Shown in pieces: positions 2,946 through 14,282 of a DNA stretch of 64,000 nucleotides. The stretch comes from an uncultured Ignavibacteria bacterium (GTDB taxonomy: Bacteria > Zixibacteria > MSB-5A5 > WJJR01 > JAJRUJ01). How positions within the stretch are numbered: position 1 is the first letter of the stretch; the number at the start of each line of letters is the position of its first letter. The notes under the pieces were generated by a model. That model was not told the origin of the DNA and searched no databases. It saw only the letters and a list, made by a program, of their open reading frames with translations. The DNA is taken from the NCBI GenBank assembly GCA_964461835.1, contig CAYWVO010000006.1, positions 13,998 through 77,997 on the forward strand, in the 5' to 3' direction. The position numbers and the translations under genes are program-made.

Positions 2946-3810
2946 AGACCTGCTCACCGCCATTCGTCCCGCCCAGTGGGTAAAAAATAGTGTCGTGTTC
3001 GCGGCCGTCATCTTTGCGCGCGAATATCAGGATACCGAGAAACTCCTGCTGGCGAGTATCGCATTTGCGTGTTTCTGTTTGATTTCCTCCAGCGTTTATT
3101 TACTCAACGATGTGATCGATGCGCCCCGCGACGCCAAGCATCCCGTTAAGAAAAACCGGCCGATTGCCTCCGGCAGAGTTCCGCCGGGGCTGGCGTTGGG
3201 GGTGGCGATTGTGTTTGCCGCCGGTGGATTTATCACCGGCTATGTCCTGTTGCCGGACGTGTTTCTGTTGACGCTGCTGGGGTATGTTGTGTTGAATATC
3301 GGATATTCACTGAAACTTAAGCACGTGGTTATTCTGGATGTGATGTCGATTGCCGCGGGCTTTGTGTTGCGTGCGGTGGCGGGAGGATTGGCGGTGTCGG
3401 TGCCGATTTCCTCGTGGTTGCTCATCTGCACGACCTTGCTGGCGCTGTTTCTGGGGTTCGGCAAACGGCGGCATGAACTGGTGTTGCTGGGCAATCAAGC
3501 CGACGGACACCGGAATATCCTGACTGAGTACTCTCCGTACTTTTTGGATCAAATGATTGGTGTCGTGACGGCATCCACCGTGGTTGCCTACTGCTTTTAC
3601 ACCCTTTCTCCGGAGGTCCAGGAAAAATTAGGGTCGGACAAGTTGGTATTGACGGTACCGTTTGTACTCTACGGTGTTTTCCGCTACCTGTACTTGATTC
3701 ATCAAAGGCAGGTAGGCGGGAATCCGACCCGCGTAATGCTGACCGACCTGCCGATTCTGATCACCGTGGTGCTTTGGCTGATTTGTGTGTTGATTATTTT
3801 GGGTGCGTAA
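2938..3810 (+). CDS. UbiA-family prenyltransferase, decaprenyl-phosphate phosphoribosyltransferase-like
   Basis: Has the NDxxDxxxD motif (LLNDVIDAPRDAKH) and multiple TM helices. The MGKDLL start sits inside the longer ORF called at 2896. Confidence 0.8.
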   Translation: MGKDLLTAIRPAQWVKNSVVFAAVIFAREYQDTEKLLLASIAFACFCLISSSVYLLNDVIDAPRDAKHPVKKNRPIASGRVPPGLALGVAIVFAAGGFITGYVLLPDVFLLTLLGYVVLNIGYSLKLKHVVILDVMSIAAGFVLRAVAGGLAVSVPISSWLLICTTLLALFLGFGKRRHELVLLGNQADGHRNILTEYSPYFLDQMIGVVTASTVVAYCFYTLSPEVQEKLGSDKLVLTVPFVLYGVFRYLYLIHQRQVGGNPTRVMLTDLPILITVVLWLICVLIILGA

Positions 3811-3893
3811 TCAACTGGCCCTATCTGCACGAAAGTGCCCCAGGGTTTCCAGGAAACGATTGCATTCAGCGAAATTATCGTGCTCGTCATTGT

Positions 3894-3918
3894 GTGCGCG
3901 GCAGGTCTCCAACCTGCC
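3894..3918 (+). repeat. Family-A hairpin repeat, copy A1 (GTGCGCGGCAGG-loop-CCTGCC)
   Basis: gtgcgcggcaggtctccaacctgcc. Related copies are listed below. Confidence 0.8.
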
Positions 3919-3950
3919 GGCTCGACGGAAAGAAACAGAATCATCCTCTT

Positions 3951-3975
3951 GTGCGCGGCAGGTCTTTAACCTGCC
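3951..3975 (+). repeat. Family-A hairpin repeat, copy A2
   Basis: gtgcgcggcaggtctttaacctgcc, a tandem neighbour of A1. Confidence 0.8.
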
Positions 3976-4080
3976 CGTCTCATGGAATTAGCGGCATCAT
4001 CCCATAGTGCCACCCGCTTCCGATCCCCACGACAAGCATAAATTACCGACGTTTCGAGAATGACAGAACGGGATAGAACG

Positions 4081-4105
4081 GGCAGACGAGACGTCTGCCG
4101 CGCAC
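4081..4105 (-). repeat. Family-A hairpin repeat, copy A3 in inverted orientation
   Basis: ggcagacgagacgtctgccgcgcac. The stem sequence differs from A1/A2 but still pairs. Confidence 0.75.
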
Positions 4106-4299
4106 AAAACCTACCCTCCCGAGGCTGGGCCGGCGACGCTCATTGGCAGATGGCCCACCACGAAAGGAATTATGCAGCAATTCTCGTAATGGTGGGGGTA
4201 GAAAGATTATAGCTACAGGACAGCAGCTGCTATCCCATCACTCCCGGATTTCATCCCTGAAATCCTTCCGTGGTGGGCCGCCCATCATTAGGTAAACAA

Positions 4300-4536
4300 T
4301 CAGCCTTTGGTCGAGCCCGGCGGGAGCAATTGCTGGAGTGCATCAGGAAGTTTACCGGGGAAATCTCGGTTGGCGACACCCCGGGCCTTGCGATAGGAAT
4401 CATCATTGACCGCCACCGGTTGCGCCGAACCGGTGTGCCGGGCGATGATCCGCTCGACTTTGCCTTTGTCATTATCCCGCAGTGCGTCAGCGAGTTCCTG
4501 GAATACTGGGCCGGTCAGCGGGCCAGGTGGATGCAT
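4300..4536 (-). CDS. Hypothetical small protein of 78 aa
   Basis: An AAGGAGGG Shine-Dalgarno sits 4 nt upstream of the ATG. The ORF is embedded in a repeat-rich intergenic region. No recognisable domain. Confidence 0.3.
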   Translation of the reverse strand: MHPPGPLTGPVFQELADALRDNDKGKVERIIARHTGSAQPVAVNDDSYRKARGVANRDFPGKLPDALQQLLPPGSTKG

Positions 4537-4667
4537 AAACCCTCCTTAGGTTCGGTTTCGTTCTGATTGAGTCTACGTGTTGCTGCTACGGGGTGCAAGC
4601 GGAAAAGGCGGGGGGTCAATCACGAATGAAACACGCTCGAACACAAAAGCTGGCACACAGGCTGGCG

Positions 4668-4716
4668 TGGCCCTGATCTGAGGGTGAGCGGCTGCGAACC
4701 CGGAGATCAGGGTTTC
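4668..4716 (+). repeat. Family-E-like hairpin repeat, copy E3 (GGCCCTGATCT…AGATCAGGGTTTCC)
   Basis: An 8-bp inverted repeat with a 24-nt loop. Shares the GGCCCTGA / TCAGGGTTTC arms with E1 and E2. Confidence 0.6.
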
Positions 4717-4762
4717 CAGGAGCGACCGGATTTGGCACCAGAGGGCATCGCACCTAGAAACC

Positions 4763-4792
4763 CTGACGAACGTCAGGCCCACCCTCCCCCAA
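4763..4792 (-). repeat. Family-E hairpin repeat, copy E1 (revcomp of GGGTGGCCCTGACGTTCGTCAGGGTTTCT)
   Basis: Matches 58412-58443 in the opposite orientation. Has an 8-bp stem CCCTGACG / CGTCAGGG. Confidence 0.75.
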
Positions 4793-4830
4793 AATGGATC
4801 CCGGCTCAAGGCCGGGATGACACGTCGGGG
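4785..4830 (-). repeat. Family-C hairpin repeat, copy C1 (TGTCATCCCGGC-CTTGA-GCCGGGATCCATTTTGGGG)
   Basis: ccccaaaatggatcccggctcaaggccgggatgacacg. Lies downstream of the minus-strand qmoC-like gene. Confidence 0.85.
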
Positions 4831-4853
4831 TGAGTCGGTCTAATTGCCGCAGA

Positions 4854-4888
4854 ACGGGCAGACGTGCAGCCTGCCGGGCACAATTCGC
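4854..4888 (-). repeat. Family-A hairpin repeat, copy A4, degenerate
   Basis: The revcomp reads TGTGCCCGGCAGGCTGCACGTCTGCCCGTTC. Confidence 0.55.
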
Positions 4889-4906
4889 TATATACCAAAA
4901 CAACCC

Positions 4907-4945
4907 CAAACCAAGTCCCGCCAGGGCGGGAAAGTTTGGGGTTGC
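4907..4945 (+). repeat. Family-B repeat, copy B1 (hairpin CCCGCC-AGGG-CGGG followed by GGTTGCCACCC)
   Basis: caagtcccgccagggcgggaaagtttggggttgccaccc. Confidence 0.7.
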
Positions 4946-5006
4946 CACCCATGTTCCATAAAAAAGCCGGTGCACGAGGACGTACCCCGGCCACAGATCT
5001 CATTGT

Positions 5007-5039
5007 CCGGGCAGGCTAAAGGCCTGCCGCGCACACATC
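5007..5039 (-). repeat. Family-A hairpin repeat, copy A5, abutting the stop codon of the qmoC-like gene
   Basis: The revcomp reads ggatgtgtgcgcggcaggcctttagcctgcccgg. Confidence 0.8.
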
Positions 5040-6218
5040 CTACGCCGTGCGCATCTCCCGACCAACCTGCTTGGCGTGGACAATCGCCAGCGTGCGGTAA
5101 ATCATATGCGCAAACTTCGAGTAGGGCATATACCACAACAGGAAAAACACGAACACCAAATGCGCGAAATAGTTGGCATAGGCGACCATCGGCAGCCCGG
5201 TGTACCGCAATAGCCAGGAAAGCATCCCGGTCAGACCCGTTAAGAACATTATGTAGATAAACAAGTAATCGGCGTAGCCGTTGGCGCCGACTTCATCCTT
5301 GTTCTGCCAGCGACGGACGATCAACCAGGTGCTGCCCACCAGCAGGGCAATTCCGCTGAGCGCACCCAGGATTTTCACCGGGTGCGGCGGTTCGATTGGT
5401 ACCTGGAAAAACGAATCCAGCGTTTCAATCCCGAACCAGGTGTGGAGATAATGCGGCAAGAATACGAACAAGAGCACCAAGCCGGTGGTGATCATCGCTC
5501 CGATAAACCCAAAAAACAAAATCATGTGGGCCTTGGCGCGGGGTTTGTTGGTTGTGCATTTGTTGAACTTGGTGTGGGTGAAAATCTCCTTCATCGTCGC
5601 CACAAATGCGGGCACAAACCCCATATTTACCTGCCCGACATCCCGATTGAGCGCGTCCCAGAACCTCTTGAACGCAACCGCAGCGAAGATGAAGATCAGG
5701 ACGTTGCCGAATACAAAGAGTGCATCCACCGTGCTGTGCGGCATAAAAATATTGTAATCGATCGCCGCCTCCGTCATGAACAGATACTCCCCGTCCACCT
5801 GGGGCGCTGAGAGAACGATACTCCCCAAAATGATCAGAATCGGTACCAAAAAGAGCACCGGCAGCGCTTTCGGCGTGGCCAGCGCCTTCCCCATGAATTT
5901 AGGGAACGAATAGTTTTCATAGATATAGGTGCGGATCGCTGCAAGCACATCCCCCGGCCGCGCGCCCCGCGGGCAGTAGGTCGTGCAATCATTGCATTGA
6001 TGGCACAGCCAGACATCCGGGTCGGCGATCAGGCGGTCTTTCTGACCCCAGCCGGCCCAGAGCATCTCTTTGCGCGGGAACGGCCTGTCCTCCGGTGAGA
6101 GATTGCAGACGACCGAGCAGGTCGCACACTGGTAGCATTTTTTCAGTGTCTCGCCCCCATTGCGGCGGACACTGCGAATAAATTCTACATCGGGTTGAAT
6201 CGTTTGGACTTCCGCCAT
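5040..6218 (-). CDS. qmoC: Membrane-bound FeS/heme-b oxidoreductase, QmoC-like. It fuses an HdrC-like 2x[4Fe-4S] ferredoxin domain to an HdrE/NarI-like transmembrane domain.
   Basis: Has two CxxCxxCxxxCP motifs (CYQCATCSVVC…P and CHQCNDCTTYCP). These are followed by roughly 6 TM helices containing conserved His. Length 392 aa. A GAGGAGAG RBS precedes the start. The gene is divergent from sat-aprBA. Confidence 0.65.
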   Translation of the reverse strand: MAEVQTIQPDVEFIRSVRRNGGETLKKCYQCATCSVVCNLSPEDRPFPRKEMLWAGWGQKDRLIADPDVWLCHQCNDCTTYCPRGARPGDVLAAIRTYIYENYSFPKFMGKALATPKALPVLFLVPILIILGSIVLSAPQVDGEYLFMTEAAIDYNIFMPHSTVDALFVFGNVLIFIFAAVAFKRFWDALNRDVGQVNMGFVPAFVATMKEIFTHTKFNKCTTNKPRAKAHMILFFGFIGAMITTGLVLLFVFLPHYLHTWFGIETLDSFFQVPIEPPHPVKILGALSGIALLVGSTWLIVRRWQNKDEVGANGYADYLFIYIMFLTGLTGMLSWLLRYTGLPMVAYANYFAHLVFVFFLLWYMPYSKFAHMIYRTLAIVHAKQVGREMRTA

Positions 6219-6901
6219 TGGTCTCTCCTCGTTGTGTCCCGAAGACCAGTCGCTGTGTCGGTGGTGCCGTTTCGTCGTGCGTATTCTTCCCCGCCGACCT
6301 CTAGTAAAATTATAGACCGGAGCAGGAGTTCAGTCAACGATGATGTTAACAATTTCACAAATACCCCTCAATCATTGTCAACTCTCACGCCGTTATTGAT
6401 ACGGTTTTCAGCCCCCCCGTTTCTCACTTAACAAGATTACAACGGTGTACAGGAATGGAAATTGCTTAGTTATTCGCCGCGCAAATGTGAACCAGTTACT
6501 CATTGCCAAACAACGAGATATGCGTGCACATGAATTAAGCGGGCCCCTTGAGTGTGTTCCAAGAATGAGTTCGCTGTTAGATCAATGAATACCGTTCTCA
6601 ATAATAATTCATAACGTTATATTCAGCAGCAAGTTATAGTTAATGACCATTAAACGGATTGGGAAGACACTATCATTATGGCAAAACATGATGTTTTTGA
6701 CGAATAACTCTGACAATTCCTTGGGAAACATGACTATAATTAACTAAATTTCGGAACAAAAAAGGTCGAGTTTCAGTACAGAAAACAGGCATGAATCATG
6801 GGATTACCTAATCGCAAAAAGTGAGGATGTGGGGCCGGAATCAGTCGAGATAATAATTCCGGAATTTGTGAATATAATAACATGTTTTTGACATCTGCGC
6901 C

Positions 6902-6931
6902 TTGACACTACCCGCGCCGTTTCGTAGGTAT
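6902..6931 (+). promoter_or_regulatory. Putative sigma70-type promoter for sat-aprBA: TTGACA, a 17-bp spacer, then TAGGTAT
   Basis: TTGACActacccgcgccgtttcgTAGGTAT lies about 140 nt upstream of the sat ATG. A second TTGACA sits 14 nt further upstream. The region is AT-rich. Confidence 0.3.
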
Positions 6932-7070
6932 TTGCGGGCAGTTAAGGCAGTCGGGCTCAGGAAAGGAACCGGGCACTTCTAACAGCAAACAATCAGGATC
7001 GGGCACGATTGCAAGACGGATTACGACAAGAAATCATGGTGTTATCATTTAATCCCTCAAGGGAGTAGCA

Positions 7071-8297
7071 ATGCCAGCCTCAACACTCATCAGCCCCCAC
7101 GGGGCGGAAGAACTAAAGATTCTCCTGCTGGACGGGCAGGAACGCGACGCAGAATTGAAGCGCGCGGAAGGACTCCCCAAACTGGTGATGTCCTCGCGGG
7201 AAACCGGTGACCTCATTATGATGGGGATCGGCGGATTTACGCCGCTTGACGGTTTCATGGGTAAGGACGACTGGAAAGGTGTCTGCGCCGACATGAAAAT
7301 GGCCAACGGAACGTTTTGGCCGATTCCGATCACTCTCTCCCATGACGAAAAGGTCGACCCCGGGACGGAATTTTGCCTGGTCTCCGGTGAGACCAACGAA
7401 ATCATGGGCACGATGAAGGTGACCGACTGCTACGAGATCGACAAGGAATTCGAATGCAAAAATGTCTTCACCACTACCGACAGCGAACACCCGGGGGTGA
7501 AGATGGTGATGTCCCAGAAGAAATATAACTTGGGCGGACCGGTGAAAGTGGTTTCGGAAAGTTACTTCCCGAAAGAATTTCCGGATCTGTATCAACGTCC
7601 AGCCGAAAGCCGCAAGACCTTCGAGGAACGCGGCTGGAAGACAATTGCCGCGCTGCAATTGCGTAACCCGATGCACCGTTCGCATGAGTATCTGGCCAAG
7701 ATCGCGTTGGAAGTTTCTGACGGCATTTACATCCACCAGCTCGTGGGGAAATTGAAACCCGGTGATATTCCGGCGGAAGTCCGGGTCAAGTGCATTAACA
7801 CACTTGTGGAAAACTACTTTGTCAAAGAGCGGGTGCTCACCGGCGGGTACCCGCTGGATATGCGTTACGCCGGCCCGCGGGAAGGTCTTCTGCACGCCGT
7901 GTTCCGCCAGAACTTCGGCTGCTCCCACATGATCATCGGTCGCGATCATGCCGGGGTGGGCGATTACTATGGCCCGTTCGATGCCCAGAATATTTTCCAG
8001 GAGCTCTGGGATGGCGCCCTGCAATGCCAGATCCTGCCGATCGACTGGACTTTCTATTGCCACAAGTGCGACGGTATGGCCTCGATGAAGACCTGCCCGC
8101 ATGGCAAAGAAGATCGGTTGTTCCTCTCTGGTACGGCATTGCGCAAGGCACTCTCGGAAGGCGGCGAGGTACCGGACGAGTTCAGTCGGAAGGAAGTCCT
8201 GGCAATCCTGCGCGATTATTACGCGGGGCTCAAGGACGAGGACAGAGTTGAAGTCAAAATGCATAAGGCCGCCACGGGCGATTCGGGGAAAAAGTAA
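7071..8297 (+). CDS. sat: Sulfate adenylyltransferase (ATP sulfurylase)
   Basis: Has the [11 protein letters not shown] and GRDHAGVG motifs. Length 408 aa. An AGGGAG RBS precedes the start. Confidence 0.95.
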
Positions 8298-8328
8298 ATG
8301 AGGATATCAACATAAATGGAGGTAACGC

Positions 8329-8763
8329 ATGCCTAGCTTTGTGATTCCGGACAAATGTGACGGCTGTAAGGCGCTCGATAAAACCGCCTGTCAGTACATT
8401 TGCCCGAATGATCTGATGGTCCTGAATAAGGACATCATGAAGGCGTACAACTGGGAACCCGAGATGTGCTGGGAATGTTACAACTGCGTGAAGATTTGCC
8501 CGACCCAGGCCATTGAAGTTCGCGGGTATGCCGACTTTGTGCCGATGGGCGCAGCAGTCACCCCGATGCGGAGTTCCGACTCGATCATGTGGACGGTGAA
8601 GTTCCGCAACGGCACGTTGAAACGCTTCAAATTCCCAATCCGCACCACTCCGGAAGGCGCCGCAGTACCGGACGGCGGATATGGGGCCGGGACCGACGAT
8701 CTCGACAGCCCGCATCTGTTCACCGAACCGGCATCGGTCGAAACCGATTTCCAGGAGAAGTAG
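8329..8763 (+). CDS. aprB: Adenylylsulfate (APS) reductase beta subunit
   Basis: Has the N-terminal 2x[4Fe-4S] pattern CDGCK…CQYICP…CWECYNCVKICP and the characteristic C-terminal tail. Length 144 aa. Confidence 0.95.
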   Translation: MPSFVIPDKCDGCKALDKTACQYICPNDLMVLNKDIMKAYNWEPEMCWECYNCVKICPTQAIEVRGYADFVPMGAAVTPMRSSDSIMWTVKFRNGTLKRFKFPIRTTPEGAAVPDGGYGAGTDDLDSPHLFTEPASVETDFQEK

Positions 8764-8777
8764 GAGGTTGAACGAAC

Positions 8778-10661
8778 ATGGCGAATTTCGAAACTGTGGA
8801 AGTCTCAACCGACCTGCTGATTGTCGGTGGAGGCATGGCGGCCTGCGGTGCGGCGGTGGAAGCTGCGCACTGGGCCAAAAAGAACGACCTGAAGGTCGCG
8901 CTCGTCGACAAGGCGGCGATGGACCGTTCCGGTGCGGTCGCGATGGGTCTCTCGGCGATCAACCAGTACGTTGACCTGAAGTCCGGTAACAACACAGTCA
9001 AGGATTATGTGGATTATGTCCGCAACGACTTGATGGGTATCACCAGGGAAGACCTCGTGGCCAATATCGCCCGGCACGTCGATTCGACGGTGCACCTCTT
9101 TGAAAAATGGGGTCTGCCGATCTGGAAGGACGAGCAGGGCAATTATGTGCACGAAGGTCGCTGGCAGCTGATGATCAACGGCGAATCCTACAAAGTCGTC
9201 GTGGCGGAAGCGGCCAAGAACGCGCTTGGCACCGACAATATTTACGAGCGTGTCTTCATTGTCGGCCCGATCATGTGTGGTGACAAGTGCGGTGGCGCGG
9301 TCGGATTCTCGGTGCGCGAAAACAAGTTCTACGTCTTCAAGTCTCGGGCTACGCTGGTTGCCCTCGGCGGCGCGGTGCACGTATTCAAGCCGCGGTCGGC
9401 TGGTGAAGGTCTGGGGCGCGCCTGGTATCCGCCGTGGAACTCGGGTTCCTCGGCTTACTTCACCTTGAAGGCCGGCGCTGAGATGACCTGTCAGGAAGTC
9501 CGGTTTATCCCGGTCCGCTTTAAGGACGCGTACGGTCCGGTTGGGGCCTGGTTCCTCTTGTTTAAGTCCCGCGCGACCAATGCCAAGGGTGAAGCCTACA
9601 TGGAGACCCGCCGCCCCGAACTCGAAAACTGGGCGCCGTACGGGAAGGTGAAACCGATTCCGGCAAACCTGCGTAACTGGCTGGGTATGCTGGATATCAT
9701 GGAAGGTCTCGGCCCGATCTACATGCGGACCGAGGAAGCGATTAAGAAGATCGCCGACGAATCGCCCGACGAAAAGGCCTACAAGAAGAAAATGAAAGAA
9801 CTTGAGGCCGAGGCGTGGGAAGACTTCCTGGATATGACCATCTCCCAGGCGATTCTCTGGGCGGCTACCAACACCGCTCCGGAAGAGAAACCGTCCGAAA
9901 TCGCCGCCGCGGAACCGTACTTCATCGGCTCCCACTCCGGCGCCTCGGGTGCGTGGGTCTCTGGTCCGGAAGACTTGCAGAACGACAAGACCAAGAGCGA
10001 CTACTTCTGGGGTTACGTGAACATGGCTACCGTGCCGGGGATCTTCTGCGCGGGTGACGCCTCCGGCGCCTCCAGCCACAAGTTCTCCTCCGGTTCGCAC
10101 GCCGAAGGTCGTATCGCAGCAAAGGGCGCGATTCAGTACCTCGTGAAAGAAAATCCGTCCCTGACTTACGACGATGCGGCGATCGAGAAGATGAAAGAAG
10201 AAATCCTGAAGCCGCTCGACCTGTTTGAACAGCACAAGGCCAGCTCCAGTGATCCGGACATCAATCCGAATTACATGAAGCCGAAGATGTTCATGTTCCG
10301 CCTGCAGAAGATTATGGACGAATACGCGGGCGGCGTGACGGCGCAGTTCACCACCAGCCAGTCCAACCTGGAAAAGGCGCTGGAACTGCTCGCGTTCCTG
10401 AAAGAAGACTCCGAGCATCTCGCAGCGTCCGACCTGCACGAACTGATGCGCTGCTGGGAAAATGTTCACCGGATGTGGCAGGCCGAAGCGCACGTGCGCA
10501 CGATTATGTTCCGCGAGGAGACTCGCTGGCCGGGCTACTACTTCCGCTCTGACACCCCGAAGATCAATGAAGACTGGAGAGTCTTCGTCAACTGCAAAGT
10601 AGATCCGAGTTCCGGTGAGTGGGAAATGATCAAGCGCCCGATTCACACCATTTATGAATAA
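8778..10661 (+). CDS. aprA: Adenylylsulfate (APS) reductase alpha subunit, a flavoprotein
   Basis: Has the FAD-binding N-terminus LIVGGGMAACGAA. Length 627 aa. An AGGAGG RBS precedes the start. Lies immediately after aprB. Confidence 0.95.
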   Translation: MANFETVEVSTDLLIVGGGMAACGAAVEAAHWAKKNDLKVALVDKAAMDRSGAVAMGLSAINQYVDLKSGNNTVKDYVDYVRNDLMGITREDLVANIARHVDSTVHLFEKWGLPIWKDEQGNYVHEGRWQLMINGESYKVVVAEAAKNALGTDNIYERVFIVGPIMCGDKCGGAVGFSVRENKFYVFKSRATLVALGGAVHVFKPRSAGEGLGRAWYPPWNSGSSAYFTLKAGAEMTCQEVRFIPVRFKDAYGPVGAWFLLFKSRATNAKGEAYMETRRPELENWAPYGKVKPIPANLRNWLGMLDIMEGLGPIYMRTEEAIKKIADESPDEKAYKKKMKELEAEAWEDFLDMTISQAILWAATNTAPEEKPSEIAAAEPYFIGSHSGASGAWVSGPEDLQNDKTKSDYFWGYVNMATVPGIFCAGDASGASSHKFSSGSHAEGRIAAKGAIQYLVKENPSLTYDDAAIEKMKEEILKPLDLFEQHKASSSDPDINPNYMKPKMFMFRLQKIMDEYAGGVTAQFTTSQSNLEKALELLAFLKEDSEHLAASDLHELMRCWENVHRMWQAEAHVRTIMFREETRWPGYYFRSDTPKINEDWRVFVNCKVDPSSGEWEMIKRPIHTIYE

Positions 10662-10781
10662 TGGGTAATCGGAGCTGATCCGTTCCTGATTGTGTTTTGA
10701 CAGTCCCCCAGGCTCGTCCGGGCCTGGGGGACAAATTTTCCGATCCTCCCGGCGTACCAGCAGCGGAGGAGGATCGATGTG

Positions 10782-11063
10782 ATGACGACGATGACCGAAC
10801 TGAAGACTGAATGCTGCCCCTACTGTAATCAACCGATGAAGAAATGGTCGCCACCACCGGATTCCAGTTGGGGTGACCACTGGCAGTGGGTGTGCTTCAA
10901 CGACGAGTGTGAGTATTTTCGCAACGGGTGGAAGTGGATGAAAGACCGCTATAATGTCCGTGCCTCCTATCGCCATCGGAAACACCCGATTACCGGCGAA
11001 ACGGGTCCTCTGCCGGTGTGGTCGCTGACGGCGCTACGGGCAGATATCATCGACGAGGAGTAA
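10782..11063 (+). CDS. Small Cys-rich zinc-ribbon-like protein, hypothetical
   Basis: Has CCPYC … CFNDEC cysteine pairs. A GGAGGAGG RBS lies 9 nt upstream of the ATG. Co-oriented directly downstream of aprA. Confidence 0.5.
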   Translation: MTTMTELKTECCPYCNQPMKKWSPPPDSSWGDHWQWVCFNDECEYFRNGWKWMKDRYNVRASYRHRKHPITGETGPLPVWSLTALRADIIDEE

Positions 11064-11100
11064 CTGCTTGTCGTGAATTTCGGGGACGAGAGGTAATATC

Positions 11101-11931
11101 ATGCAGGAAGAAATGAACAAGCTTAAAGAGGATATTCTGAAGAATTACCCCCGATTGCAAAAGAAAGACGTCTTTCAGTTTGCCTGTCATAAAGGCGTGC
11201 CGTGCTTTAATGACTGTTGTAGTGATGTGAATATCTTTTTGACTCCGTATGATATTATCTGCCTGAAGAACCATCTGGGTATCACCTCCGGTGAATTCTT
11301 GGAGAAATACACGGTCTCCCCGTTTGGGAAGAAGCAGAAGTACCCGGTGCGGCTGCTGAAGATGACGGAAACCGAAGATAAAAAATGCCCATTTGTCACC
11401 GATGAAGGTTGTAGGGTTTATTCCGACCGCCCCTGGTCCTGCCGCATGTATCCACTCGGGTTAGCCTCACCCAAAGAGGGCTCACCGGAATCGGAGGACT
11501 TTTACTTTTTGATGAAAGAACAGGTCTGCAAAGGATTTGAAGAGAAGCAGGAGCAGACCATCGAGGAGTGGCTGGAGGATCAGGGGATCAACGCCTATGA
11601 TGAAATGGGGCGGTTGTACAAAGAGGTCACCCTGCATGAGTTCTTTGAAGAGGACAAGGAGCTGACTCCTCCGAAGATGGAGATGTTCCATCTGGTGTGC
11701 TATGATATTGATACGTTCCGTAAATTTGTCTTCGAAAGCTCGTTTTTAGGGAAATTTGAGGTCGACGACCAGACGCTGGCGAAAATGAAAGAGTCGGACG
11801 TTGAGCTTTTCAAGTTTGGCGTACTGTGGCTGAAATTCGCGTTGTTCGGCGAGAAAACCATGAAGGTGAAGGACGAAGTCCGTGCCGCCAAGGAGCGCGA
11901 AATCCGCAACCGCATGACCCCGCGGGGATAA
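11101..11931 (+). CDS. YkgJ/UPF0153 family protein with a putative Zn/Fe-chelating CxxCxxCC domain
   Basis: Has CHKGVPCFNDCC and, downstream, KKCPF…GCRVYSDRPWSCRMYP, the typical YkgJ family signature. Length 276 aa. Confidence 0.7.
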   Translation: MQEEMNKLKEDILKNYPRLQKKDVFQFACHKGVPCFNDCCSDVNIFLTPYDIICLKNHLGITSGEFLEKYTVSPFGKKQKYPVRLLKMTETEDKKCPFVTDEGCRVYSDRPWSCRMYPLGLASPKEGSPESEDFYFLMKEQVCKGFEEKQEQTIEEWLEDQGINAYDEMGRLYKEVTLHEFFEEDKELTPPKMEMFHLVCYDIDTFRKFVFESSFLGKFEVDDQTLAKMKESDVELFKFGVLWLKFALFGEKTMKVKDEVRAAKEREIRNRMTPRG

Positions 11932-12018
11932 CTTCAGCCGTTACTTCGATCGATAGTTCTTAAAGAAATCCGCCAAAGGGTGGACCGCCCGCCGTTAGTC
12001 TTATGAGGAAGTGCCAAG

Positions 12019-13455
12019 TTAGCCCGTTTCATCTGGTGTGTAATAGTTAGTTGGAAAGTGTTTCAAATTGTAAATTGCAAAATCATGGAGTAATATCTGC
12101 TTCCAGTTAATTGGGAATATTTTTAACGGTTGTAATCTATCCAGATATACTGGATCTATTCTAAGCATAGTTTCTCTTCCCCGAGCCCCCCCTATCAGGA
12201 GATTTATCCTCTCAATGCCGAATTCGGTTTCCAAGATTTCCTTGATCTTAGTTGCGAATTCGTCTGCCCCAGTGCTAAAACTCAGAGCAATCCTCAGATG
12301 TCCTGTGCCCCCTGTGCGATCTGTAGGACTAATTCGGCTCCGCACGTCTGCGTAACCTCTAACAAAACTCATTATAACATTCCTATCCACTGTATCAGCG
12401 ATCAGATCAGGGATAATTGGCACCACCCCGCGGCGAGTAATTTGCAAGGAGGATAAATAATCATTAACGGCACATAAGACTGCTGAAGATCCATTAAATC
12501 TAATCCTGATCTTATAATCATAATCAGATACTTTTTGCACCGACGCCCTGTCGCCGGAATCTATTCTATCGAAGTACTCATTTAGAGAATCGCGAATCCC
12601 ATTTACGTCTTTTCGGAAAGCCTTAGCCTGGTCCATTCGGAAGCTCGTAATTCCATCGGCGAGGATGATGCCTTCATTCTCAGTACCCCGGTTAAATACG
12701 CCTTTGTGGTAAATGATTTCTAATAACCTATCATGCACCAATGTCCCCCCGGCGGCTATAAGACCCAAAAGGTATGCTATGTCTGCATTGGGGATAACCT
12801 GCATTGCCTCTATAGCGGCCTGGAATAGACTGTCTAACTCGTTCCTATGAGTAGCCTGCAGTCGTTGAACAAGAGGCGTATCTCCTCCTTGCTCATTGAA
12901 GAACCGCTCATATTGTTCGATAATTGCATAATGGTTTTCGGGCTTAATGGCGCAGGGTGAAGCCCAGATGGCTTCCACCTCTTCTTTCGTACTTCTCAGT
13001 ACACGATCTCTTGAGACGCCTTCAAGGAAGACATTTGCTTCCAGATTATGGGTTATTCCAGAAACAGTCAAATTGGAAGAGCCGATTATAACTTTCAAGG
13101 CAGAAGACTTTCTGAATAAATATATCTTAGAGTGTAATAGTCTTTTGCACTTTTCGTTCACTACTTTCTCTGATCTGTAAAATACTCTGCATTGTGAATT
13201 ACCGGGGATGGTAGCCAATTCCTCGATGATTTGTGGTTCCGTGAAGAACCGCTCTATGTCGAACACAACACGAAGTCTTCCACCCCTTCGCAAAAAAGAA
13301 ACAATATCTTCCCTGAATAGTTCAAATGCATTATACCTGGCAAAAGCAACTAGGAAGAAAATATCATCTGCCCAACGGAGACAATCCCGAATCTGTGACT
13401 CTAATTGTTTTCTTTCGGTGGTCAGAAGGTAAGCTTCCATTTGTTCAACAATCAA
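12019..13455 (-). CDS. PLD-superfamily (HKD-like) nuclease, the putative restriction endonuclease of a Type II R-M pair. Its C-terminal roughly 280-aa domain is uncharacterised.
   Basis: Has the partial HKD signature LHSKIYLF…IIGSSNLT near residue 110. It overlaps the upstream methyltransferase gene by 4 bp. GC is low, about 40-45%. Confidence 0.65.
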   Translation of the reverse strand: MIVEQMEAYLLTTERKQLESQIRDCLRWADDIFFLVAFARYNAFELFREDIVSFLRRGGRLRVVFDIERFFTEPQIIEELATIPGNSQCRVFYRSEKVVNEKCKRLLHSKIYLFRKSSALKVIIGSSNLTVSGITHNLEANVFLEGVSRDRVLRSTKEEVEAIWASPCAIKPENHYAIIEQYERFFNEQGGDTPLVQRLQATHRNELDSLFQAAIEAMQVIPNADIAYLLGLIAAGGTLVHDRLLEIIYHKGVFNRGTENEGIILADGITSFRMDQAKAFRKDVNGIRDSLNEYFDRIDSGDRASVQKVSDYDYKIRIRFNGSSAVLCAVNDYLSSLQITRRGVVPIIPDLIADTVDRNVIMSFVRGYADVRSRISPTDRTGGTGHLRIALSFSTGADEFATKIKEILETEFGIERINLLIGGARGRETMLRIDPVYLDRLQPLKIFPINWKQILLHDFAIYNLKHFPTNYYTPDETG

Positions 13456-14282
13456 TCTCGTTTCCGAAAGATCAAGATGAATTCGTGGACTTTGTTAACC
13501 CTGAATACGCTTGGATACCCCAAAGGCCGCAAATTGTTGTATTCTTGCTTTCTATTCCAGATAATAATATCATCCAATGCAAACCCAATATCTGCCATCA
13601 TCGCCTGAATATCCATATGCAACGGATAACATTTATCCCCTTTTCGAATATCCATCACGATTACACAACAGTACCCATTTGGTTGGGTTGCACGATAGAC
13701 TAGTTCGAAGATTTCCCTAAGTTGTGCAAAGAAATCGGAGTAATCTGTTACGTTTCCAAGGTCACTCGGGGTGTTTCCGTAGTTTCTCCGGTTCTTTCCA
13801 TCAGCCGTACGTTTTTGATTGAGAATATCCCAATATGGCGGTGAGGTTATGGTTAACCTCACCGAATTGGGTTCGACATATTTCGCTAGATTTCTTGCGT
13901 CTGCACGTTTCATTTTCGCGAGAGCACTGTCAATGGTGTTGAATATATCCGTCTGTTGTAATCGTCTTTTGTATAAATCGATAAATGCCGGACTTAATTC
14001 AATTCCCAGACTGCGCCTATCTAATGCAGATGCTGCCAACAAAGTGGACCCGCTTCCGGCAAAAGGATCTAAAACCAGGTCGGATTCGTGGCTAAAAATC
14101 TCAATCAAACGGCTACACAGCATTGTGGGAAACATTGCAGGGTGATTGAGCTTCAACTCCTGCGGTGATTTTCTTATGTCATCCCAAACTGAAACGGAGT
14201 ACTTTAGCCAGGTCCTTCCATCCAACCCTATTGTGTTCTTTGTGGATAATCCCATCATGCAAACTCCTAAACCACTTGCCAT
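13452..14282 (-). CDS. DNA methyltransferase, N4-cytosine or N6-adenine, with gamma-type motif order
   Basis: Motif I/X is HPAMFP…VLDPFAGSGST. It is followed by SPPYWD (motif IV). Length 276 aa. GC is low. Confidence 0.85.
   Translation of the reverse strand: MASGLGVCMMGLSTKNTIGLDGRTWLKYSVSVWDDIRKSPQELKLNHPAMFPTMLCSRLIEIFSHESDLVLDPFAGSGSTLLAASALDRRSLGIELSPAFIDLYKRRLQQTDIFNTIDSALAKMKRADARNLAKYVEPNSVRLTITSPPYWDILNQKRTADGKNRRNYGNTPSDLGNVTDYSDFFAQLREIFELVYRATQPNGYCCVIVMDIRKGDKCYPLHMDIQAMMADIGFALDDIIIWNRKQEYNNLRPLGYPSVFRVNKVHEFILIFRKRD

Follow-up and report, generated by a model that had tools for sequence, protein, structure and literature searches.

A conserved zinc-ribbon and YkgJ-like gene pair behind aprA at a zixibacterial sat-aprBA locus with a lone, divergent qmoC

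How adenosine 5'-phosphosulfate (APS) reductase, AprBA, and the quinone pool exchange electrons is a long-standing question. In purified form, QmoABC and AprBA bind to each other, no electron transfer between them was seen in vitro, and a third partner has been proposed (Ramos et al., 2012; PMC3333476). At the locus described by Thiel et al. (2019; PMC6338057), sat-aprBA is followed by two hypothetical genes, which were reported without analysis. Here we analyzed a 64,000-nucleotide stretch of contig CAYWVO010000006.1 (GenBank assembly GCA_964461835.1; hereafter the window) from an uncultured bacterium of the Zixibacteria, in which positions 5040-11931 carry sat-aprBA, a lone qmoC in divergent orientation and, directly after aprA, genes for a small zinc-ribbon protein (znr) and a YkgJ-like cysteine-rich protein (ykgJ). 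As far as sequence comparison can tell, znr-ykgJ is a tightly conserved accessory, with probable metal binding, of an AprBA clade that is very large, and the pair is a specific candidate for a part in this electron exchange.

The conservation of the pair was assessed in two sets of loci. A search of one genome per species with an alignment of 10 YkgJ-like proteins confirmed 592 stretches, from which the 80 best loci were mapped by tblastn; a converse set comprised 80 metagenome loci picked by AprA identity alone (77-88%). Synteny counts refer to loci with enough flanking sequence. We found znr directly 5' of ykgJ in all 78 genome loci that could be scored; in 62 of 64, aprA precedes the pair on the same strand. 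One of the two exceptions has aprBA-sat adjoining znr-ykgJ in divergent orientation. The other, in a Zixibacterium (locus L026, 368-9571), has six tandem paralogues of ~460 aa that split znr-ykgJ from aprBA, with qmoAB 5 kb downstream; each of these paralogues ends in a Por_Secre_tail sorting domain of the type IX secretion system (T9SS). Among the loci picked by AprA, znr is present in 55 of 59 and ykgJ follows aprA in 44 of 45. The comparison of gene neighbourhoods proposed in a preliminary description of this DNA thus found both genes conserved beside aprA in relatives.

The YkgJ-like protein has 2537 database relatives, of which the best 120 are 58-89% identical and, where named, all belong to Candidatus Zixiibacteriota; the best genome locus in the species-level search (L008) is likewise from Zixibacteriota. 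The clade that carries the pair extends to Ignavibacteria/Kryptoniota, Gemmatimonadota, Phycisphaerae, Omnitrophota and many soil and sediment lineages, and YkgJ identity across phyla is 52-72%. The six-gene unit of the window, qmoC(-)|sat-aprB-aprA-znr-ykgJ, occurs in 21 of the 80 species-level genome loci and in two complete zixibacterial genomes (CP070824.1 and OY760907.1).

Four layouts were distinguished by the placement of the qmo genes. The order aprBA-znr-ykgJ-qmoABC (layout A) is the commonest in metagenomes, including many soil and peat contigs of the AprA-picked set, and is also found in Gemmatimonadota, Omnitrophota, Abyssobacteria and Phycisphaerae. Kryptoniota, Bacteroidetes and Ignavibacteria carry qmoAB-sat-aprBA-znr-ykgJ-qmoC (layout B); a third order is qmoCAB-sat-aprBA-znr-ykgJ (layout C), and qmoC(-)|sat-aprBA-znr-ykgJ (layout D) is that of the window. 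Whatever the placement of the qmo genes, znr-ykgJ stays with aprBA, commonly in the same operon as qmoABC. Because the pair lies between aprA and qmoA in most lineages, we read it, from gene order, as an addition to the Apr-Qmo system and not as a substitute for QmoAB. The two genes are close (median gap of 31 nt) or overlapping (gene calls in L002 and L006), which suggests that their translation is coupled. In one relative (L051), tandem ykgJ-like duplicates lie 3' of aprBA-znr (3164-3946 and 4098-4904), the first of which shares 53% identity with the YkgJ-like protein of the window.

The ykgJ-like gene (11101..11931, + strand) encodes a protein of 276 aa, rich in cysteine, in which a PF03692 domain (40.7 bits against a cutoff of 23) at the N-terminus is combined with a helical C-terminal domain. 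The preliminary description had placed it in the YkgJ/UPF0153 family with a CxxCxxCC motif; the family assignment stands, and the motif is Cx5Cx3CC, accompanied by four more conserved cysteines. In an alignment of 80 sequences reaching down to 29% identity, C29, C35, C39, C40, C104 and C114 are invariant, while C96 and C143 are kept in at least 90%. The full architecture, including the helical C-terminal half, is retained across 176 clusters (50% identity, E<=1e-30). A structure prediction of YkgJ alone, as had been suggested, gave a confident fold, which found no match among solved structures. We also considered an HdrB/DsrK-type protein with a CCG domain, an identity rejected for the lack of a CCG (PF02754) Pfam match and of an HdrB-like fold match.

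The znr gene (10782..11063, + strand) lies within an open reading frame (ORF) at 10779-11063, and its likeliest start is ATG 10782, eight bases after the ribosome-binding site (RBS) GGAGGAGG at 10766-10773. Both the gene and its RBS had been recognized before, and only the length has changed, from 94 to 93 aa; a database protein (P0121) has the very same 93-aa sequence. Znr has exactly four conserved cysteines in a zinc-ribbon pattern (CPxC...CFNDxC) and a conserved aromatic-rich tail (ASYRHR...GPLPVWS). Its predicted model (predicted local distance difference test score, pLDDT, of 88.5) gave no informative fold match. Both YkgJ and Znr are probably metal-binding.

Current annotation goes no further than "hypothetical" for one gene and "YkgJ family cysteine cluster protein" for the other. 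In line with the earlier remark that the YkgJ family has no assigned role in sulfur metabolism, neither gene has an assigned role in our searches: no NCBIfam model was found for them and the literature calls both hypothetical. We found no link to sulfur metabolism in the literature on YkgJ/UPF0153/PF03692, and in the literature on genes beside aprA only Thiel et al. (2019) was found to mention such genes, as conserved hypothetical ones. Fusions of YkgJ to Qmo proteins or Znr were also sought. No QmoA or Znr fusion was obtained: one candidate (P0011) resembles a frameshift read-through and another (P0355, 690 aa) carries a distant full-length YkgJ-like domain (34% identity) at the C-terminus of a radical-SAM/SPASM-type protein (CNYGCNHC). 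Given the latter fusion, the wider YkgJ family may work with radical-SAM maturases.

The pair follows a complete dissimilatory Sat-AprBA module, in which sat, aprB and aprA are adjacent, on the same strand and each above its NCBIfam cutoff. Sulfate adenylyltransferase is encoded by sat (7071..8297, +; PF14306 (PUA_2) and PF01747, and 495 bits to the subfamily model NF003166). The beta and alpha subunits of APS reductase are encoded by aprB (8329..8763, +; 209 bits to the equivalog TIGR02060 against a cutoff of 136, and PF12139) and aprA (8778..10661, +; 886 bits to the equivalog TIGR02061 against 642). The closest solved structure to AprA is that of Archaeoglobus fulgidus (1JNR_A of 1JNR; 781 bits).

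On the opposite strand, qmoC (5040..6218, -) matches the equivalog NF038018 over residues 9-381 of 392, with 424 bits against a cutoff of 300. This full-length match disposes of the case, foreseen in the preliminary description, that 5040-6218 encodes an unrelated HdrE/NarI fusion. Both four-cysteine [4Fe-4S] motifs (eight cysteines) and four histidines are invariant in the alignment of QmoC proteins (A8); the histidines fit two b-hemes, and the N-terminal domain matches solved HdrC chains. From its sequence, QmoC is assigned as the membrane subunit of the Qmo complex, combining an HdrC-like 2x[4Fe-4S] domain with a membrane domain of the di-heme-b type. The gene had been called a divergent, stand-alone qmoC-like gene, which is right for its orientation and lone position but not for its sequence, which is that of a canonical QmoC.

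Between qmoC and sat lies a shared control region (6219..7070) with blocks of conserved sequence in common with eight related loci (alignment A5); its measured length of 852 bp agrees with the ~850 bp given before. A candidate sigma-70-like qmoC promoter (6337..6309, -; TTGACT-17-TATAAT, 11 of 12 matches) abuts one of two operator-like inverted repeats, TTGTGAA-N5-TnACA. These two copies (6344..6360, -, adjoining the qmoC promoter; 6866..6882, +, 5' of sat) are the sole exact matches in the 64 kb. Both are kept at the same positions in the eight related loci, and at the site 5' of sat relatives carry one or two copies (TTGTGAAAAAAGTyACAT). The described Rex operator is TTGTGAAW4TTCACAA (PMC2883068). 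Against the 18-bp Rex palindrome (TTGTGAA-N4-TTCACAA), the left half of the repeats is exact and the right halves match at five of seven (TTAACAT) and four of seven (ATAACAT) positions. Since the core TGTGA-N6-TnACA is common to Rex and CRP-type sites, and fits CRP-type sites equally well, it suggests a redox- or cyclic AMP-type co-regulation of qmoC and sat-apr.

A GC-rich 13-bp hairpin followed by AAAUUUU (10703..10732, +) lies between aprA and znr and resembles an attenuator or partial terminator. It lies 40 nt 3' of aprA, and equivalents with different sequence follow aprA in four relatives (L008, L003, L002 and L012). The predicted RNA fold of the aprA-znr intergenic region has an energy of -59.8 kcal/mol (z = -5.0), and in the window a second stem (10741-10776) pairs with the znr RBS. 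The hairpin and U-run suggest, as modelled, attenuation of the genes 3' of aprBA.

The absence of qmoAB from the locus, as first described, was upheld by Pfam scans, which found no qmoA, qmoB or hdrA among 28 large ORFs, and by six-frame tblastn, in which zixibacterial QmoA, QmoB and DsrA/B/C/D/L/M/K/N queries had no match (E<=0.01) in the 64-kb window and the 10 kb upstream of it. These 10 kb (L091) encode ABC transporters and peptidases; no qmo or dsr gene is among them. Nor was an aprM found in 5040-11931, where each gene is assigned to another family and QmoC is the sole membrane protein; no AprM-specific model was run genome-wide. Related Zixibacteria point to the likely place of the missing genes. 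In one relative with the layout of the window (L041), a qmoAB-dsr operon shares a 46.6-kb contig with the apr cluster, ~20 kb away from it, in the order qmoA-qmoB-dsrA-dsrB-dsrD-dsrN-dsrL-dsrC-x-dsrM-dsrK (L088). In a close relative with this layout (L089/L090), the qmoAB-dsr operon starts 1.6 kb 3' of ykgJ, and in a complete genome (CP070813.1) such an operon has no apr gene closer than 10 kb. QmoB is common across Zixibacteriota, and Zixibacteria have been listed with the Dsr pathway's complete gene set (Diao et al., 2023). Because Zixibacteria with the same local layout carry qmoAB at the head of the dsr operon, the source genome, by analogy, very probably keeps its qmoAB elsewhere, together with dsr genes. 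The preliminary description had left open whether qmoAB are elsewhere or Apr uses a different electron-transfer route; the relatives favour the former, and the latter finds no support. The lack of qmoAB at the locus is unremarkable in itself.

Several relatives with the layout of the window carry a second DsrMK-type module on the apr cluster, a module that the window itself lacks. In these loci ykgJ is followed by genes for a DsrM-like protein (NarI-type, ~310 aa) and a DsrK-like protein (Fer4_8 and CCG, 537 aa), at 10859-13397 in L002 and 11878-14423 in L003, and also in L009, L051 and L056. Directly 3' of ykgJ, the window has instead low-GC (~42%) genes for a phospholipase D (PLD)-family nuclease and an N6/N4 DNA methyltransferase (12019-14282, -), a pair that looks like a restriction-modification island. 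At this place relatives carry the dsrM2K2-like genes (L002, L003) or, 1.6 kb on, qmoAB-dsr (L089/L090).

The locus is a known arrangement in a sulfate reducer or sulfur oxidizer of the Fibrobacteres-Chlorobi-Bacteroidetes (FCB) group. As an overall explanation, we propose, with about an even chance of being right, a zixibacterial sulfate-activation/APS-reduction locus with split qmo genes and znr-ykgJ as an accessory pair of AprBA. Sat would produce APS, which AprBA would interconvert with sulfite. QmoC, encoded divergently from a control region with two Rex/CRP-like operators, would connect the menaquinone pool to the cytoplasm, and QmoA and QmoB would be encoded at the head of a qmoAB-dsrABDNLC-dsrMK operon elsewhere, as in related Zixibacteria. 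The znr and ykgJ-like genes would be a dedicated accessory pair of one AprBA clade. Their products would most likely form a small cytoplasmic heterodimer, with the zinc ribbon as adaptor, a [4Fe-4S] cluster on the Cx5Cx3CC motif of YkgJ and a second metal site on its other four cysteines, and this heterodimer may serve as an auxiliary redox module that works on AprBA or together with it. Gene identities, synteny counts, conserved cysteines and the qmoAB-dsr operons of relatives enter this account as direct observations, and from these we infer the heterodimer and its metal content. By analogy, a role of the pair as a redox partner is conceivable, at a likelihood somewhat short of even. More doubtful is the specific version in which znr-ykgJ encodes two unrecognized, redox-active subunits of the APS reductase-Qmo machinery, passing electrons in or out at AprB or QmoA. 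If true, the pair would be a concrete candidate for the postulated third partner of the menaquinol-to-APS step, and it could bridge QmoC and AprBA directly in genomes like that of the source.

Several observations weigh against the proposed explanation. No qmoA or qmoB was found in the 74 kb around the locus (the window and 10 kb upstream), so that qmoAB are not located for the source genome. The two complete genomes with the exact window layout, CP070824.1 and OY760907.1, are not among the best 120 QmoB matches (>=61% identity), which is uninformative rather than negative. The hairpin and U-run suggest that the pair is made at a lower level than AprBA, which fits an assembly factor as well as a subunit. 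The metal content of the pair, the Znr-YkgJ complex and its contact with AprBA are parts that we infer. Finally, as the literature describes them, classical apr-qmo operons (e.g., in Desulfovibrio) do not include the pair, which therefore is not a universal requirement of APS reduction.

The same features bear on what else the pair could be. Low expression, to which the positionally conserved, terminator-like hairpin between aprA and znr points, would suit a maturation or assembly factor for AprBA (insertion of Fe-S clusters or of flavin adenine dinucleotide (FAD), or complex assembly) that is present in catalytic amounts and stands outside steady-state electron transfer. Such a factor would also be expected to stay with aprBA where the qmo genes have moved, as the pair does in layouts B, C and D, and the one characterized PF03692 protein, FliB, is an enzyme that acts on another protein. 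However, in the commonest layout qmoABC lies 3' of the same hairpin, so that low expression cannot separate a subunit from a chaperone; the cross-phylum identity of YkgJ is roughly like that of QmoA and QmoB (scored against different query sequences), and classical AprBA matures without znr or ykgJ. We consider an assembly role unlikely on balance, to the same degree as the redox-active subunit pair.

Two further readings are much less probable. The preliminary description had envisaged YkgJ as a route in place of QmoAB, so that the source organism would be without QmoAB and AprBA would obtain electrons from QmoC through YkgJ and the zinc-ribbon protein. The lack of qmoA and qmoB within the 74 kb, the retention of a qmoC that is apparently co-regulated with sat-apr, and the probable binding, by analogy, of an Fe-S cluster by YkgJ are consistent with this route. 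In most lineages, however, aprA is followed by the pair and then by qmoABC, all in one operon, Zixibacteria with the same local layout have qmoAB with their dsr genes, and QmoB is widespread in the phylum; the route is therefore not supported and is, in our estimate, highly improbable. Marginally less probable again is that Znr is an Ogr/Delta-like transcription factor and that the pair regulates sulfur genes. Znr has a weak similarity to Ogr_Delta (PF04606, 20.9 bits), and many of its homologs carry precomputed PF04606 matches, but this score is under the Pfam gathering score of 26.3, the tight and often overlapping coupling to a cysteine-rich gene is atypical of Ogr/Delta activators, and the conserved operators look like Rex/CRP sites, to which proteins of other families bind.

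Elsewhere around the locus, Rfam gave no credible match within 4500-12500, and the ORF at 6195-6431 belongs to no Pfam family. The 1.2 kb between the UbiA-family gene ubiA and the end of qmoC (3811-5039) contain small ORFs, none of which belongs to a Pfam family, and show neither a tRNA nor, from 4500 on, an Rfam match; relatives carry TauE, DVU0150-family or carbonic-anhydrase-like genes at this place. Also in the window are genes for large secreted proteins (33442-34962 and 58678-62445), whose domains are of the peptidase C25, beta-helix and T9SS sorting types, and for an exosortase EpsH/EpsI pair (1393-2945). These sorting tails and exosortase genes match the surface apparatus of the FCB group and are unrelated to the sulfur locus.

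A conserved and probably metal-binding pair thus lies immediately 3' of aprA in hundreds of species-level genome stretches. The lineages that carry it appear to dominate the uncultured diversity of the pair's AprBA clade in the sampled soil, peat, sediment and aquifer metagenomes, and znr-ykgJ could serve to mark this clade in annotation pipelines.

Among described systems, the locus of Thiel et al. (2019) is like that of the window in that two conserved hypothetical genes come after sat-aprBA and a lone qmoC stands at the locus, with qmoA and qmoB side by side elsewhere on the chromosome. It differs in that qmoC is downstream there, whereas it is upstream and divergent in the window, and its qmoAB placement is unlike that in Zixibacteria, where qmoAB head the dsr operon. 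A contig named "Bacteroidetes/Chlorobi group bacterium ChocPot_Mid" (L073), apparently from the Chocolate Pots metagenome-assembled genome of that study, carries znr-ykgJ-qmoC, and the two hypothetical genes of Thiel et al. are therefore very likely the znr-ykgJ pair. Acidobacterial apr-qmo-dsr loci (Hausmann et al., 2018; PMC6018796) also contain conserved genes without an assigned role, drawn there as "syntenic genes 1-4 of unknown function"; these may include znr and ykgJ.

For the YkgJ-like protein, the nearest functional likeness is to the flagellin lysine methyltransferase FliB, the only characterized PF03692-related protein, whose CX4CX3CC motif binds an oxygen-sensitive [4Fe-4S] cluster (PMC8598068). 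Both proteins have an N-terminal CXnCX3CC motif and eight conserved cysteines, a likeness by description and not by sequence comparison. In contrast to YkgJ, FliB acts on flagellin with S-adenosylmethionine (SAM), and the C-terminal parts, gene contexts and taxa are unrelated.

Lineage-specific companions of AprBA have precedents in QmoAB-HdrBC/HdrD, found in Gram-positive sulfate reducers and some sulfur oxidizers, and in AprM. Unlike these variants, the operon of the window is without an HdrB/CCG protein or an AprM-like anchor and keeps its QmoC. With the canonical aprBA-qmoABC of Desulfovibrio, Chlorobaculum and Archaeoglobus it shares the Sat, AprB, AprA and QmoC families, and its chemistry and its link to quinone are expected to be the same. 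To this canonical arrangement the window adds two conserved genes after aprA and a split set of qmo genes.

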